This document shows positions 13,191 through 27,499 of a stretch of DNA of 64,000 bases, one piece after another (positions within the stretch are counted from its first letter, which is position 1; the number at the start of each line of letters is the position of its first letter). The DNA is taken from the NCBI GenBank assembly GCA_045106645.1, contig JBGCEY010000039.1, positions 1,701-65,700 of the forward strand, given 5' to 3'. The position numbers were made by a program, and so were the translations under genes. The stretch comes from Ilumatobacter sp. (lineage in GTDB: Bacteria > Actinomycetota > Acidimicrobiia > Acidimicrobiales > Ilumatobacteraceae). The notes beneath the pieces were generated by a model, which ran no database searches, was not told the DNA's origin, and was given only the letters and a program-made list of their open reading frames with translations.

Positions 13191-13901
13191 ATGCATTCCA
13201 CGACCATTATCAAAGAACCATTCGATAGAACCGGGCCAGCGGCTGCCGGCTCACGAGCCCCCATCACCTTTGCGGCGTCCCCGTTCGGGTCGCCGCAATG
13301 CACCCCGACCAGCGAGTACGAGCGGCGATTCCGTCGCCGGCTTCGTGACCTGGGTGGCGACGCAGAACCGGCCACCGGCACGCCGCGACGCCCTGTCGTG
13401 TCCACGCTCGTTGCGTCACTGCGTGGCGGCAACACGCCTGACCATGTGTTGTCGATCGCCCTCGGGTTGAACGCCAGCGACCTCGCTCAGGCGTACGACC
13501 ACCTCGACCGGTTGCGGCGCACCGCATGTGATGCACTCGACGATCTCGTCTTCGATCCGACCATTGCTCGGTTTCAGAGTGTCGTGGGGATCATCGAACC
13601 GCTGATTCCGCAGATCGTTGGCTCGCTCACGGTCACCGCACGGGACCAGCCCGACCTCTTCGAGGCCGAGGTGCGTCGATTCGAACAGCGGATGGAAGAG
13701 TTGGCACAGGAGTGCGATACCACCGAGGCGCTCATCGAGCGGGGCATGCGCCCTGCCGGATCCTTGGTTGCTCGTCTCGACGACGGACGCGGCGGTGGCA
13801 TCCACCACGAACCGGCCTACCGGCCGAGCCGTGTTGGCGATCTCACGCCTGTTCGCCTGGCAGCGTTGCTCGGCGAATCCCTGAAAGAACCGGTCCGATG
13901 A
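13191..13901 (+). CDS. Hypothetical helical protein
   Basis: GGAGG SD before ATG 13191; helical/coiled-coil C-terminal half; ATGA overlap with the next gene. Confidence 0.7.
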   Translation: MHSTTIIKEPFDRTGPAAAGSRAPITFAASPFGSPQCTPTSEYERRFRRRLRDLGGDAEPATGTPRRPVVSTLVASLRGGNTPDHVLSIALGLNASDLAQAYDHLDRLRRTACDALDDLVFDPTIARFQSVVGIIEPLIPQIVGSLTVTARDQPDLFEAEVRRFEQRMEELAQECDTTEALIERGMRPAGSLVARLDDGRGGGIHHEPAYRPSRVGDLTPVRLAALLGESLKEPVR

Positions 13902-14638
13902 GCTCGGTGACCCGGTCGCTGCAGTTCAGCCTCGGTGGCGTGTGGCTTGCTGAGCACACGCTGCAGACGCTTGGCGCCGGAGTTGCCGTCTTTGACCACG
14001 ATGCTCGCCTCACGCAAGCGGACGACAGAACGATCGAACTGCTCTGCCTCGAGTCGACCGGCTCGAGCGACTACCGCCTGGACCACGACCGGTGGTCCGC
14101 GATTCACCTCGACGGCGCACCACTCCAAGAGCACTCCGATCCTGTTCGGCTGGCACTGTCGATCGAGTCGGCATCTGTTGCTGATGTCATTGGTGTGTAC
14201 ACCGATGAGGATCAGATGCGGTGGCTTGCCGTGACGGCGCTCCCACTTGCGGGCTTCGATGGGCGCACGCAAGCAGTGCTTGCGTCGTTCGTGGAAGTCA
14301 CGGGGATCATCCGTGACCGCGCTGCTGTGGACTTGGCTGAACAACTCGGCCGAGCCGCCTTCGACGATGTCGGGGTGGCGCTGTGCGTGGTCGATGAACG
14401 ATTCGATCTCGTCGAATGGAACCGGGCGTTCGCCGTCGCGGTGGACCGTCCGGACTACGAGTTGCTCGCCACTCCGCTCGAGCGCTGGATCGAGGATGCC
14501 CGAGCTGCGGTGCTGGAAGCCCGTGACGAAAAGGGGACTACCACGATGAGTCTGTGGCTCGACGGTTCGCCAGTGTGTATCCGTGCGTGGCGAACCGATC
14601 AGGTGCGCAGCGGTGCCACGATGGTGCAGTTGACCTGA
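13898..14638 (+). CDS. PAS-domain protein without an output domain
   Basis: PAS-like GVAVFDHDARL...RWLAVTALPL...VLASFVEVT, then a second shorter PAS-like segment (VALCVVDERFDLVEWNRAF). No kinase, GGDEF or MCP domain. Confidence 0.7.
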   Translation: MSSVTRSLQFSLGGVWLAEHTLQTLGAGVAVFDHDARLTQADDRTIELLCLESTGSSDYRLDHDRWSAIHLDGAPLQEHSDPVRLALSIESASVADVIGVYTDEDQMRWLAVTALPLAGFDGRTQAVLASFVEVTGIIRDRAAVDLAEQLGRAAFDDVGVALCVVDERFDLVEWNRAFAVAVDRPDYELLATPLERWIEDARAAVLEARDEKGTTTMSLWLDGSPVCIRAWRTDQVRSGATMVQLT

Positions 14639-14650
14639 TCGAACCCGAGG

Positions 14651-15157
14651 TCAGTCGACGGTCTTGTTGCTGGCGGCCTCGGGGGAGCGTGCCCACATGA
14701 GCGCGCTGTCGAAGCCCAGCTTGTAGTCCGGGCGAAACTCGATGATCACGCGGTCGGGGGAGTCGAGGAACGTCTGAAACGTCGTGGCTGCAGTCTCGTC
14801 GTCTGGGCGAATCCAACGGGCGAATCGTGGATAGAACCAGTCTTTGATGTCGCGCGACGAGTGCACGGTGCACTCACCCTTGTAGGTGATGGTCTTGCCC
14901 GTCCCCATGTCGGTTCCAGTGCTCGTGACGCACATGGATGCCCGAGGAAATCGTCGGACCGCAGAGATCCGAGCGCGCCGCTCGGCTGCAGTCAACCAGA
15001 ACGTTCCGTCGTGGTGGAGGTACGACATGATCACGCCGAACGCTTCGCCAGCCTTGTTGGTCCACATGAACGTGCACTCGCGTTGCGTGCTGATCAGTTG
15101 TTGTTCGAGCGCGGGAGCGAGCCCGCATTCGGTCAGATCTTCGTAGTCGCTGTCCAT
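14651..15157 (-). CDS. Pyridoxamine 5'-phosphate oxidase-like (split-barrel flavin/F420-binding) protein
   Basis: ECTFMWT...GTFWLT...RARISAVRRFPRASMCV; size and pattern of actinobacterial FDOR proteins. Confidence 0.7.
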   Translation of the reverse strand: MDSDYEDLTECGLAPALEQQLISTQRECTFMWTNKAGEAFGVIMSYLHHDGTFWLTAAERRARISAVRRFPRASMCVTSTGTDMGTGKTITYKGECTVHSSRDIKDWFYPRFARWIRPDDETAATTFQTFLDSPDRVIIEFRPDYKLGFDSALMWARSPEAASNKTVD

Positions 15158-15269
15158 GTTTTCATCGTGTCAGGCAGACTCGTCGTCGAGCCACTCGGAG
15201 CTCCGACCGTTGGTCTCACGGTGTGACTGTGTGACCTGACACGGCATTGACTCGGCGGCGAGTGCTCGC

Positions 15270-15298
15270 TTGACAAGATACTGTCCAGCGGTCAGTAT
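15270..15298 (+). promoter_or_regulatory. Sigma70-type promoter of the oxygenase operon
   Basis: TTGACA (15270-15275), N17, CAGTAT (15293-15298). An in-frame GTG at 15306 lies 7 nt downstream (possible leaderless start). GACA-N6-TGTC inverted repeat overlaps the -35. Confidence 0.6.
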
Positions 15299-16793
15299 GT
15301 CGGGCGTGCCAGCAAGCATCATCAACCGCGTCACGCCCACGATCGAACCGAACGATCACCCGTACATGAATGGCCCCTGGACGCCGCAATACGAAGAAGT
15401 GGATGCCACCGAGATGGAGGTGATCGGTGAGATCCCGACCGACCTCGACGGCATCTATGTCCGCAACACCGAGAACCCGGTCCACGATGCCATTGGCGTG
15501 TATCACCCGTTCGACGGTGACGGCATGTTGCACACGATGTCGTTCAAGAATGGCGCCGCCACCTATCGCAACCGGTTCGTACGCACCGAGGGATTCCTCG
15601 CTGAAGCCGAGGCGGGCCACGCGCTGTGGACGGGCCTCACGGGGAACCCGAAGAAGTCGCTGCGCCCGGGCTGGGGTGCTCGCGGCGGGATGAAGGATGC
15701 GTCGTCGACCGACGTCGTCGTCCACGCGGGTGAAATCGTCTCCACCCACTACATGTGTGGCGAGGGGTACCGCTTCGACCCGAACACCATGAACCAGATC
15801 GGCACAGCGAACTGGGTGCCGCCCGAGGGTGTGTCCGCGCACCCGAAGGTCGACCTGGAAACCGGCGAGATGCTCTTCTTCAACTACGGCCAGCAGGCGC
15901 CGTTCATGCACTACGGCGTGGTCGGGGCGGACCGCAAACTCAAGCACCTGATCCCCATCGAGTTGCCGGGCCCGCGCCTGCCTCATGACATGGCGTTCAC
16001 CAAGAACTACTCGATCCTGATCGACCTGCCGTTTTTCTGGAACGCAGAGCTGATGGAAGCCGGCTTCTTCGTGCCGACGTTCCATGATCACCTGCCCACT
16101 CGGTTCGCGATCGTCCCACGGTTCGGTCAGCCGAGCGAGATCCGTTGGTTCGAGGCCGACCCGACGTTCGTGTTGCACTGGATGAACGCATACGAAGAGG
16201 GCAACGAGATCGTGCTCGACGGCTACTTCCAAGAAGACCCGGACCCGGCTCCGCTCGACGCACCCGGGCGCGATCCACGCATTGCCAAGGTCATGGCGGG
16301 TATCGACGAGGCGTCGTTCAAGCCTCGGCTGCACCGATGGCGCTTCAACCTCGACACGGGAGCGACCCGCGAAGAGCACCTGGACGAACGCAATCTCGAA
16401 TTCGGCATGTGGAACCAGCACTACGCCGGCAAGAAGAACCGCTACCTGTACTCCACCACCGCGGAGCCGGGCTGGTTCCTCTTCAACGGCATGGTGAAGC
16501 ACGACCTGGAGACCGGCGATTCGGTTTCGCTCGACTTCGGCGCGGGACGCTTCGGGAGCGAGGCCCCGTTCTGTCCACGCGTCGGCGCCACCGCCGAAGA
16601 CGATGGGTACCTGATGTCGTTCATCACGGACATGAACGAGCAGCGCTCCGAATGCGTGATCATCGATGCGCGCGATGTGGCCGCCGGGCCGATCTGTCGG
16701 ATCATCCTTCCTCATCAGATCTCGAGTGGGACCCACGCCACCTGGGCCTCGCACGACGAGATCGCCGCTGGCCTGGCCAACGCGCGAGCCTGA
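15297..16793 (+). CDS. Carotenoid cleavage oxygenase / lignostilbene dioxygenase family (RPE65 superfamily)
   Basis: HPFDGDGMLH, SAHPKVD, PHDMAFT, FVLHW and GTHATW supply the four Fe-ligating His. Start is ATG 15297 or GTG 15306. Confidence 0.92.
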   Translation: MSGVPASIINRVTPTIEPNDHPYMNGPWTPQYEEVDATEMEVIGEIPTDLDGIYVRNTENPVHDAIGVYHPFDGDGMLHTMSFKNGAATYRNRFVRTEGFLAEAEAGHALWTGLTGNPKKSLRPGWGARGGMKDASSTDVVVHAGEIVSTHYMCGEGYRFDPNTMNQIGTANWVPPEGVSAHPKVDLETGEMLFFNYGQQAPFMHYGVVGADRKLKHLIPIELPGPRLPHDMAFTKNYSILIDLPFFWNAELMEAGFFVPTFHDHLPTRFAIVPRFGQPSEIRWFEADPTFVLHWMNAYEEGNEIVLDGYFQEDPDPAPLDAPGRDPRIAKVMAGIDEASFKPRLHRWRFNLDTGATREEHLDERNLEFGMWNQHYAGKKNRYLYSTTAEPGWFLFNGMVKHDLETGDSVSLDFGAGRFGSEAPFCPRVGATAEDDGYLMSFITDMNEQRSECVIIDARDVAAGPICRIILPHQISSGTHATWASHDEIAAGLANARA

Positions 16794-24812: not shown

Positions 24813-26000
24813 ATGACCTACACCTTGTACGGCGCTCCGGTTTCTCTCTACACGGGCAAGGTCCGCTCGTACCTGCGGTCGCAACGTGTCGACTTCGTCG
24901 AGATGTCGCCGGGCAGCGATCGGTACCTGAACCACATCGTGCCAACCGTGGGCCGCTGGATCATCCCGTGCTTGGAGACACCGAGCGGTGAGGTCATTCA
25001 AGATGGCGCGGACATCATCGACCATTTCGACCTGGGGGAGGGCCAGGCACACCGCCGGCATTCTGTTCGACCTGACTCGCCGACGTTGCTGGCGATTTCC
25101 CACCTGTTCGAGATTTTTGGTGGAGAGGGTTTGCTTCGGCCGGCAATGCACTATCGCTGGAATTTCGATGATCAGAACCTCGAGTTCATCGTCTCGGAGT
25201 TCGCCCTCAACATGCCCCAGGCACTCAGCGAGGCCGAGGCGCGCGAGATGTTTCTGCACAGCAGCGGCCGCATGCGCAAGGCTGCGGTTGCCTTCGGTGT
25301 GTCACACGAGTCGCAGCCGCTGATCGAGTCGGCATTCGAGGAGTGGCTCGACCTGTTTTCGGCCCACTTGGCGGACCATCCATTCCTGCTCGGCGGGCAC
25401 CCAACGCTTGGTGACTACGGGCTGATGGCCGCCATGTGGGCGCATCTCTTTCGCGATCCGACGCCGTCTGCGCTCATCAAGCAACGGGCTCCTCGCGTCG
25501 GTCGCTGGGTCGAGCGGATGAGCACGGGCGAGCCGTACCTTCACGAGTACGACGGGGTCGACACCGAGGCCCTCATCGATGACGCCGAGATTCCCCAGAC
25601 TCTGGTGGCGATGATGCGCTTTGTTGCCGATGAGTACCTGCCCGAGATCGCCGCCCATGTCGAGGTCGCAAACCGTTGGCTTGCTGACAACCCGGACATC
25701 GAAGCCGGCACCAACGGGCTCGAGGACCCAGCGCGGCGCTCGCTCACCGATCGCGCCCGAGGTGGAGCGGGGACCGCCACGTTCGACTGGCGGGGCATTC
25801 AGATCACCACCGGGGTGATGCCGTACCGGTTCTGGCTGCTGCAACGGCTCCATGACGATCTCGCAGTCGCGAGTGCAGCTGACCAGTCGCTGGCACGTCA
25901 GGCGTTTGGCGCAGGTGGTCTGGAGACGCTGCTCGACCTGCGGACCATTCGTCGGGTGGAGCGCAGTGGCCACCTCGAGGTGTGGGGTCCGGTGATCTGA
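24813..26000 (+). CDS. Glutathione S-transferase-like protein with extended C-terminus
   Basis: LYGAPVSLYTGKVRSYL...IPCLETPSGEVIQDG N-terminal domain; PFLLGGHPTLGDYGL C-terminal motif. Confidence 0.8.
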   Translation: MTYTLYGAPVSLYTGKVRSYLRSQRVDFVEMSPGSDRYLNHIVPTVGRWIIPCLETPSGEVIQDGADIIDHFDLGEGQAHRRHSVRPDSPTLLAISHLFEIFGGEGLLRPAMHYRWNFDDQNLEFIVSEFALNMPQALSEAEAREMFLHSSGRMRKAAVAFGVSHESQPLIESAFEEWLDLFSAHLADHPFLLGGHPTLGDYGLMAAMWAHLFRDPTPSALIKQRAPRVGRWVERMSTGEPYLHEYDGVDTEALIDDAEIPQTLVAMMRFVADEYLPEIAAHVEVANRWLADNPDIEAGTNGLEDPARRSLTDRARGGAGTATFDWRGIQITTGVMPYRFWLLQRLHDDLAVASAADQSLARQAFGAGGLETLLDLRTIRRVERSGHLEVWGPVI

Positions 26001-26106: not shown

Positions 26107-26586
26107 TCAGTGGATGAGCGGGCACTCGTTGGCGATGTCGAGCACGGCGTAGATCCGTCCGATGCCGATGCAGAACCCGATGGTGGCGCTCAGCTCGACG
26201 ACTTCGGCGTCGCTGTAGTGCTCGCGCAGCCGATCGATGAACTCGTTGTCGATGTCGGTATGGGTCAGCGCGAACCGCTCGGCGTATTCGATCGCCAAAC
26301 GCTCACGATCGCTGAACGACTCGACGTCGTCATACCGCTCGACGGCGGCGTATTCCTCTTCGGTGACGGTTGGCTGCGCTCCCGGCGCGGCTCGTGTGTC
26401 CAGTCAAATGTCGCACGCGTTGATTCGCGCGATTCGCATCCGCGCCAACTCGCGCTCCCGGGTGGACAGCTGGCTGGCGTACATGGTGCGGCTGAAGCTG
26501 CCTGCCGCCTTGTACAGATCCGGCGCCAGCTGCCACATGCGGGTCTGCTCGGTGTCGGTGCCCTCAGGCAATTCGATTCGCGCCAT
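26107..26586 (-). CDS. AhpD/carboxymuconolactone-decarboxylase-like protein with in-frame TGA (candidate selenocysteine, CxxU)
   Basis: One frame from ATG 26586 to the stop at 26107, with a single TGA at 26406-26404 in RERELARMRIARINACDI*LDTR. The downstream FSDRERLAIEYAERFA...YSDAEVVEL is the CMD C-terminal half. Confidence 0.75.
26373..26391 (-). promoter_or_regulatory. Candidate bacterial SECIS hairpin
   Basis: mRNA +13..+31 after the UGA reads GC-C-GCGC[CGGGA]GCGC-A-GC. The apical loop starts 20 nt after the UGA and has GG at loop positions 2-3. Confidence 0.45.
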
Positions 26587-27029
26587 CAACTGACCTCCGT
26601 GTCGGGTTGAGTCAAAGCTACAACGGCCGTTCCCGTCACCACGGCTTGGTCGTCGCGCATGAGCCGCACCTCGCAGATGGCTCGCTGCTCTCCATCGACG
26701 AGGTCGATCGACGTGACGGTGCCGATGGCGGTCACGCGATCATGGTCGAGCACGGGGCGTCCGAACGACACCTGGAGACGTCGCACGCAGGTCGGGCCCT
26801 GCCAGGCCAGCAACATGTTGGTGATGTACGACAAGTTGAGCGGGCCCTGATTGATCACTCGCTCGCCGAGTCCGATCGGCATCTCGGCAACGGCCGTGCG
26901 GTCCCAGTGGACCGGGTAGGGATCGCGCAGGATCGCTGCCATGGTCTTCATCCGTTGGGGGTCCACGTCAGCCATCACCCACTCGGGAATCTCGTCGCCG
27001 ACCTGGACTGCACTCGCTCGAGCACTCAT
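26586..27029 (-). CDS. MaoC/hotdog-fold dehydratase
   Basis: ILRDPYPVHWD...VINQGPLN...LQVSFGRPV. Confidence 0.85.
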   Translation of the reverse strand: MSARASAVQVGDEIPEWVMADVDPQRMKTMAAILRDPYPVHWDRTAVAEMPIGLGERVINQGPLNLSYITNMLLAWQGPTCVRRLQVSFGRPVLDHDRVTAIGTVTSIDLVDGEQRAICEVRLMRDDQAVVTGTAVVALTQPDTEVS

Positions 27030-27454
27030 CGCCGCAACCTCCAGTGGTTGGTGATTCGAGCTGCTGGTTCACCGTCGGGCGTAGACAATTCGATCGAGAA
27101 AACGAACCGGTCGTATGTCGCGCCGGTCTCGGTCTGACAGCGTTCGGTCTCGATCACACCTCCGTCGAAGCGATACTCGACGCCCTCGCGTAGCGGCTGG
27201 AAGTACTCCCAGTCGTAGCCGTCGAGGCCGACCGATCCGGCGCCGACAACGTCGCCGAGTGCGAACAGCTCGGCAATCGAGGTGTTCGCCCCTTGGATCG
27301 GAACGTGGAACAGGGCAACCGGATGAACCAGTTGGTGCGCGAATTGCTCGCGCCCGGTGCAATCCGTGAGGAGCCAGTTCTCCCAGTGTTCGATGGTGCG
27401 CATGCCTCCGGGGAACCGGTGTCCCACCAGTGCTGCGAGCTCGTCGTCGGTCAT
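27026..27454 (-). CDS. Hotdog-fold (FAS1-like/MaoC partner) hypothetical protein
   Basis: MTDDELAALVGHRFPGG...HPVALFH...WEYFQPLREG; overlaps the MaoC start; ATG at 27454. Confidence 0.6.
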   Translation of the reverse strand: MTDDELAALVGHRFPGGMRTIEHWENWLLTDCTGREQFAHQLVHPVALFHVPIQGANTSIAELFALGDVVGAGSVGLDGYDWEYFQPLREGVEYRFDGGVIETERCQTETGATYDRFVFSIELSTPDGEPAARITNHWRLRR

Positions 27455-27499
27455 TCGTCGAACGTAGCGGAGCGCAGGTCGCTCGTCGTCGTCGCAGTA

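Follow-up and report, generated by a model that had tools for sequence, protein, structure and literature searches.

The window analysed here, a stretch of 64,000 nucleotides from an Ilumatobacter-like genome, carries on its minus strand an AhpD-type gene whose reading frame is interrupted by a TGA at codon 61. Judging from comparative sequence evidence, we consider this TGA to be a genuine selenocysteine (Sec) codon in an intact gene, with a probability of about 0.93. The features on which the following account depends are:

26107..26586, minus strand: predicted AhpD/CMD-like selenoprotein gene (ATG at 26586, 159 codons, Sec at codon 61, stop TGA at 26109..26107)
26404..26406, minus strand: predicted UGA Sec codon, residue U61 of C58-D-I-U61, in a column conserved among the TGA-form orthologues
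26593..26597, minus strand: Shine-Dalgarno-like GGAGG, 6-7 nt 5' of the ATG, read off the sequence
26586..27029, minus strand: MaoC/HadB-like hot-dog protein gene (Pfam MaoC_dehydratas, 25.9 bits, just below the cut-off of 27)

The two minus-strand open reading frames listed at 26404-26589 and 26107-26298 are a single frame split by one TGA, as the initial annotation had proposed, and the read-through translation agrees with the ORF list on this point: with TGA read as U, the frame 26589..26107 contains only the internal TGA (26406..26404) and the terminal one. The surrounding motif is RIARINA-C58-D-I-U61-L-D-T-R, numbered from the ATG at 26586, which we take as the start because every orthologue begins with M-A-R-I. 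The overlap of this start with the end of the preceding MaoC-like gene, also remarked on from the sequence alone, can be read directly at 26588..26586, where the stop TGA of that ORF shares one base with the ATG of the selenoprotein gene (TGATG). Gene callers break the Sec-type gene into two pieces.

The interrupted frame is widespread in the order to which this organism belongs. When 301 genomes of the same order were searched with stops translated through, 100 had a match at E <= 1e-10; exactly one in-frame TGA was present in 34 of the 36 best places and, by the table count, in 43 places (35 genomes) at E <= 1e-30, the weaker matches being mostly without an in-frame TGA. Two CxxU copies are present in at least eight of these genomes. 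Among the translated whole-genome loci, 28 of 30 have TGA at the aligned column, and Cys (TGC) occupies the U61 column in L038 and L042, the two motifs being C-S-V-C and C-V-V-C. The named-contig loci all have TGA at this column (15 of 15, two of them contigs already among the whole-genome loci). Those from Ilumatobacter or Ilumatobacteraceae are 76-83% identical to the window protein and the rest come from other Acidimicrobiales or Acidimicrobiia MAGs; the suggestion that the host is an Acidimicrobiia-like bacterium thus agrees with the affiliation of the nearest named loci, which are Ilumatobacter and Ilumatobacteraceae MAGs within the Acidimicrobiales.

The protein databases give a complementary picture. 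Full-length homologues there are at most 50% identical to the window protein, and the four inspected (P0002, P0006, P0016 and P0072) all have Cys at the U61 position; the nearer relatives are present as fragments only, of about 90-110 residues, and the three inspected (P0098, P0106 and P0113) begin right after the TGA. At least one such NCBI entry is labelled "carboxymuconolactone decarboxylase family protein". Hence the comparison of relatives that had been proposed as a check yields TGA at the one column in all the TGA-form orthologues read and Cys in the more distant homologues. The other proposed check concerned decay beyond the TGA, and of this there is no trace: the orthologue alignments have no frameshift past the TGA, and dN/dS against five close relatives is 0.08-0.29 on its 5' side and 0.10-0.36 on its 3' side. 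Given such low values 3' of the TGA, the downstream part is evidently translated.

Directly behind the TGA there is a small hairpin that we consider to be the SECIS element of this gene:

26373..26391, minus strand: predicted SECIS hairpin, stem starting 12 nt after the UGA, apical loop CGGGA

A G-rich-loop hairpin 13-31 nt 3' of the TGA had already been noticed in the initial annotation; it is indeed present, and its stem is conserved with covariation in 27 orthologues. For this comparison 27 TGA-form sequences were aligned without gaps, and the stem occupies columns 22-29/33-40. Of all the stem cells, 92.6% are paired, and six of the eight stem pairs have changed on both sides (CG/UA, GC/CG/UG, AU/GC and UA/CG). 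Neither the observed pairing percentage nor the covariation score was matched in any of 500 shuffles, and control stems slid along the alignment have only 25-59% of their cells paired. RNAalifold recovers the identical stem. When the 60 nt past the TGA are folded one sequence at a time, most sequences likewise give this hairpin in an unchanged register, as in GCUGCAUC-GGC-GAUGCAGC, and the form typical of the Ilumatobacter clade is (G)CUGCG(U/C)-CGGG(A/U)-. All 27 orthologues have a G in the column that directly follows the 5' arm of the stem, matching the conserved G in the apical loop of bacterial SECIS elements that is described in a figure legend of the Sargasso Sea study (PMC1088965). At the same stem position the Cys-form loci L038 and L042 can form only three or four of the eight pairs.

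The copy in the window is not the best example of its kind. It folds as GC-C-GCGC / CGGGA / GCGC-A-GC and forms six of the eight pairs of the consensus; the third pair, in the lower stem, is replaced by a C.A mismatch, which results from a synonymous change of GCU to GCC. Its folding energy is -8.4 kcal/mol as against -9.0 to -11.5 kcal/mol in the nearest relatives; elsewhere the values are -9 to -13 kcal/mol in most relatives and -2 to -6 kcal/mol in six marine loci. Folding of the 71 nt past the TGA in the window's own sequence gives no extra stability over chance (z = +1.38), and an Rfam scan of the region returned no relevant match and no model that detects the hairpin. The significance of the hairpin therefore comes from the comparison of orthologues, as energy by itself provides none.

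The window gene is also not the only candidate of its type. The genome to which it belongs (G000) is a MAG of 97 contigs and 4.34 Mb, estimated to be 94.7% complete, with the window on contig C33, and at least five of its genes have TGA at a canonical Sec position: the window gene, a second CxxU paralogue, selD, a glutathione peroxidase (GPx) gene and a formate dehydrogenase (FdhA)-like gene. The four additional ones are:

L001 1501-2421 = G000:C36:231525-232445, plus strand: selD, itself apparently a selenoprotein gene (TIGR00476 match and an in-frame TGA)
L055 1519-1986 = G000:C48:25018-25485, plus strand: second CxxU paralogue, 48% identical, motif NECHV-U-LNTRAASAMQQG
G000:C36, TGA at 308900, frame 308402-309265, plus strand: glutathione peroxidase, VNVASA-U-GLTPQY, TGA at the peroxidatic position
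G000:C46, TGA at 14165, frame 13853-15835, plus strand: molybdopterin oxidoreductase of the formate dehydrogenase alpha type, SCNRT-U-HAPSV

The SECIS of the C48 paralogue is the family consensus itself, GCUGCAUC-GGC-GAUGCAGC. The GPx frame matches Pfam GSHPx (PF00255, E 2.3e-35) and has, after its TGA, a hairpin of 7 bp whose loop is GGUC; the FdhA-like protein matches PF00384 and PF01568, and its TGA falls at the FdhA-type Sec position. Both of these came from a crude scan of the genome for an open frame, a TGA and then a perfect hairpin, which is not to be taken for a full selenoproteome: in a genome of such high GC content, almost all of its 466 candidates are noise, and among the candidates listed only these two could be recognised from their motifs, after which Pfam confirmed both.

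With respect to the machinery for Sec insertion, the initial annotation had named selA, selB, selD and tRNA-Sec as the genes to look for, and the outcome is divided: tRNA-Sec and a Sec-type SelD were found, and neither selA nor selB is in the assembly. The selD gene (TIGR00476, 367.6 bits) has a TGA of its own where the catalytic residue is encoded (FSHGAG-U-GCKLAPGEL), and the tRNA-Sec, whose 66.5 bits exceed the gathering score of 47, is called SeC, with anticodon UCA, by aragorn:

L016 4376-4471, on G000:C21, minus strand: tRNA-Sec (selC), anticodon UCA

About 70 nt from this tRNA lies a gene for a 444-aa tyrosine recombinase/integrase (L016 2968-4302), with a gene for a TadA/VirB11-type ATPase close by, and a mobile element may use selC as its integration site in this genome; a similar suggestion has been made for a hypervariable region of Actinomarina (bioRxiv 10.64898/2026.04.03.716425).

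Within the 94.7%-complete assembly, neither selA nor selB was found with the HMMs TIGR00474, PF03841, TIGR00475 and PF09107, nor by tblastn with SelA and SelB from the same genus; the best "selB" HMM matches proved to be EF-Tu. The same-genus genome G141 has selB (277 bits) adjoining selA (404 bits) at L054 5476-8953, both over the curated cut-offs. More generally, of the genomes with the TGA form 29 of 30 have selA (the exception being a genome that is 77% complete), as do 12 of 20 with the Cys form only and 45 of 55 genomes of the order overall, a sample that is not random. The region in question can be followed by synteny (G141:C1 3.626-3.722 Mb, L054 and L071-L074 were compared). G141 3.627-3.635 Mb is syntenic with our contig C21, the one that holds the tRNA-Sec; contig C19 matches up to its very last base (79927), which corresponds to G141 position 3,655,506; and G141 3,656,448-3,656,957 has a short match to contig C89. 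From about 3.657 Mb to the end of the compared stretch at 3.722 Mb, at least 65 kb that include selB and selA, G141 has no counterpart in our assembly, and C19 ends about 1.5 kb short of this G141-only stretch. Because G141 possesses both genes and our assembly breaks at the edge of the region that contains them, we read their absence as an assembly or binning gap, the missing stretch of at least 65 kb probably being an unassembled or unbinned region; it could be a genomic island.

The alternative that this absence raises is a recent loss of selA and selB from the strain: UGA would now terminate translation, and the TGA-containing genes would be relics that have not yet visibly decayed. It draws on the failure of every search to find the two genes, on the lack of any counterpart to the G141 stretch and on the mismatch in the window's own SECIS, which is missing in most relatives. 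We nevertheless regard it as improbable, since five genes, selD among them, retain a TGA at the catalytic position together with intact downstream frames, the tRNA-Sec is intact, and dN/dS past the TGA is low against four close relatives; the assembly itself, in 97 contigs and 94.7% complete, with C19 ending at the edge of the missing region, argues for a gap rather than a deletion.

Less probable again is a reading of UGA as a standard amino acid with no Sec involved, be it Trp or Gly under an alternative code or Cys or Trp by near-cognate read-through. The frame would be open under any code in which TGA is sense, but TGA terminates the window gene, the MaoC-like gene and selD, and the terminal TGA of the window gene aligns with TAA or TAG in several orthologues; TGA is an ordinary stop in this genome. 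Moreover, the residue aligned with it in homologues is the Cys of a redox motif, and a dedicated tRNA-Sec, SelD and SECIS are all present. Finally, the notion that a TGC or TGT has become TGA by mutation or base-call error, splitting an ordinary CxxC AhpD-like gene, is compatible with the single-base difference between these codons and with the split made by gene callers, but a TGA at one column in dozens of independent assemblies, in TGA-form orthologues 41-83% identical to the window protein across the Acidimicrobiales, a covarying hairpin that no nonsense mutation would bring with it and purifying selection that continues downstream leave it a negligible chance.

If codon 61 does specify Sec, its decoding would follow the established bacterial pathway. 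SelB-GTP carrying Sec-tRNA(Sec) would bind the hairpin, which starts 12 nt past the UGA and has its G-rich loop 16-20 nt past it, and the bound SelB would deliver Sec once the UGA is in the ribosomal A site. The predicted product would be a 159-residue thiol/selenol oxidoreductase of the AhpD fold, whose C58-x-x-U61 redox centre lies at the N-terminal end of a helix. From this fold and motif, the protein may be expected to alternate between selenol/thiol and selenenylsulfide states and to reduce an electrophile such as a peroxide or a disulfide.

The assignment to the AhpD/CMD family comes from both sequence profiles and a structural model. The protein matches Pfam CMD (PF02627) at 34.1 bits against a cut-off of 23 (E 2.7e-8). 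Its top NCBIfam match is NF053654, "YciW-related (seleno)protein" (E 6.5e-21), with a score of 74.9 bits where the cut-off is 310; TIGR01926 (peroxidase-related enzyme) gives 36.6 bits, under its cut-off of 81.8, and NF041047, "GSU3128 family (seleno)protein", 16.9 bits, under its cut-off of 110. NF053654 and NF041047 are curated AhpD-fold families with Sec members, and the score of the window protein is far below both cut-offs; by these profile scores it is a relative of the curated AhpD-fold (seleno)protein families and a member of none that matched.

An AlphaFold model, for which 16 orthologues served as input, is all-helical (pLDDT 85.1, pTM 0.76) and places the CxxU motif at the start of helix 59-66. 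A fold search with this model gave 7xw1, 2ijc and 2o4d (PA0269/AhpD) as the best hits; further entries of the AhpD/CMD fold came behind them, among these the debrominase Bmp8, and the hits also include the AhpD His-mutant structures 1lw1 and 1me5. In classical AhpD the motif is CxxCxxxH, the catalytic His standing four residues past the second Cys. The window protein has Arg65 in place of this His (CxxUxxxR); all 16 aligned sequences share this Arg, and so do the Cys forms. The motif of the TGA-form orthologues can be written as N-x-C-x-[IV]-U-[LM]-[DN]-T-R. A third Cys, at codon 155 (26122-26124, minus strand) within D-I-A-N-E-C-P, is invariant among the 16 closest orthologues, and in another clade of the family this segment is swapped for DFD; Cys155 could be a resolving Cys.

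The closest solved structure is that of P. aeruginosa PA0269 (2o4d, 2ijc and 7xw1; sequence E 5.5e-12, fold TM 0.65/0.77). The two proteins are about equal in length and INACDIC(U)LDTR aligns residue by residue with INGCAYCVNMH, but their identity is only about 26%, and PA0269 has both Cys and the complete CxxCxxxH where the window protein has U61 and R65. With M. tuberculosis AhpD (1gu9), the reductant of AhpC, the window protein has in common the all-helical AhpD fold and a CxxC-type centre; the structural match is marginal, however (E > 1), and the catalytic His of the mycobacterial enzyme is absent. A role as AhpC partner was considered and is not supported, there being neither a catalytic His nor an adjacent peroxiredoxin. 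From fold and motif only, the best-supported function would be that of an AhpD-type selenol/thiol oxidoreductase, and this is what we infer the window gene to encode.

Selenoproteins of this general kind have been known for some time. It was claimed from the outset that CxxU proteins of the AhpD/CMD type had been described in marine metagenomes, and the literature confirms this. The Sargasso Sea data yielded two such new selenoprotein families, an "AhpD-like protein" with CxxU (COG2128, 27 sequences) and a "CMD domain-containing protein" (Pfam02627, four sequences) (Zhang, Fomenko & Gladyshev 2005, PMC1088965), and the GOS data contain "AhpD-like 1", with 299 sequences the fourth largest family, and "AhpD-like 2" with 70 (Zhang & Gladyshev 2008, PMC2398784). 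Both families are listed in a 2026 review (PMC13188914), and an "AhpD-like protein" family is the browsing example of BSepDB (PMC13326102). With the marine AhpD-like (COG2128/TIGR01926) and CMD (PF02627) families the window protein has in common the fold family, a CxxU with Sec for the second Cys, the existence of Cys homologues and a SECIS with an apical-loop G directly after the UGA; unlike them, it passes the Pfam CMD cut-off only and has Arg at the position of the CxxCxxxH His. This likeness is one of fold, motif and SECIS, and the protein could belong to either AhpD-like 1 or AhpD-like 2.

Accordingly, the window gene belongs to a selenoprotein family known since 2005, and its recognition is an annotation rescue rather than the discovery of a new kind of system; nothing known about the mechanism of selenoproteins is altered by it. 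What it does point to is a systematic mis-annotation, in that the Sec-form subfamily stands in the public protein collections as C-terminal fragments, and an HMM combined with a SECIS model for the subfamily would mend dozens of Acidimicrobiales annotations. It is also a modest addition to the evidence for common Sec use in the Acidimicrobiales. In the Actinomarinales, another order of the Acidimicrobiia, Sec machinery and a Sec-type SelD have been reported (bioRxiv 10.64898/2026.04.03.716425); we found no paper that makes a substantive connection between Ilumatobacter and selenoproteins.

Outside the genus the gene neighbourhood is not kept, and it is of little use for assigning a function. 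Besides the MaoC-like gene, it includes:

27026..27457, minus strand: conserved 143-aa gene that overlaps the MaoC-like gene, 71-84% identical in the close relatives that have the MaoC-like adjacency
24813-26000, plus strand: GST-like gene (395 aa, GST N- and C-terminal domains and a long C-terminal extension), convergent and just downstream

None of the adjacent genes (the MaoC-like gene, an unassigned gene, the GST-like gene, an unassigned ORF and a sulfatase gene) is an ahpC or peroxiredoxin gene. The MaoC-like protein has weak PDB matches to MaoC and HadB, and its gene is probably co-transcribed and, through the TGATG overlap, translationally coupled with the selenoprotein gene. Their adjacency is kept in five Ilumatobacter-level relatives, is within about 2 kb in L060 and is lost in the farther orthologue loci.

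These features can be joined in a speculative proposal, to which we give rather less than even odds: the Arg-for-His proteins would be a distinct subfamily of AhpD-fold selenoproteins, translationally coupled in Ilumatobacter to a MaoC/HadB-like hydratase pair, and might act on an electrophile that is derived from lipids or linked to an acyl thioester rather than as a general-purpose reductant of AhpC. A fatty-acid hydroperoxide might be an example of such a substrate, and the Sec form could predominate over much of the Acidimicrobiales, often in duplicate.

The arrangement of all three genes (143-aa, MaoC-like and selenoprotein) is intact in the five closest relatives and is found nearby in a sixth, and does not extend to the more distant orthologues. 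The 143-aa product has neither a Pfam nor a PDB match; the identity of 71-84% covers residues 95-239 of the long ORF to which this gene corresponds, and the protein might serve as partner subunit in a HadAB-like pair.
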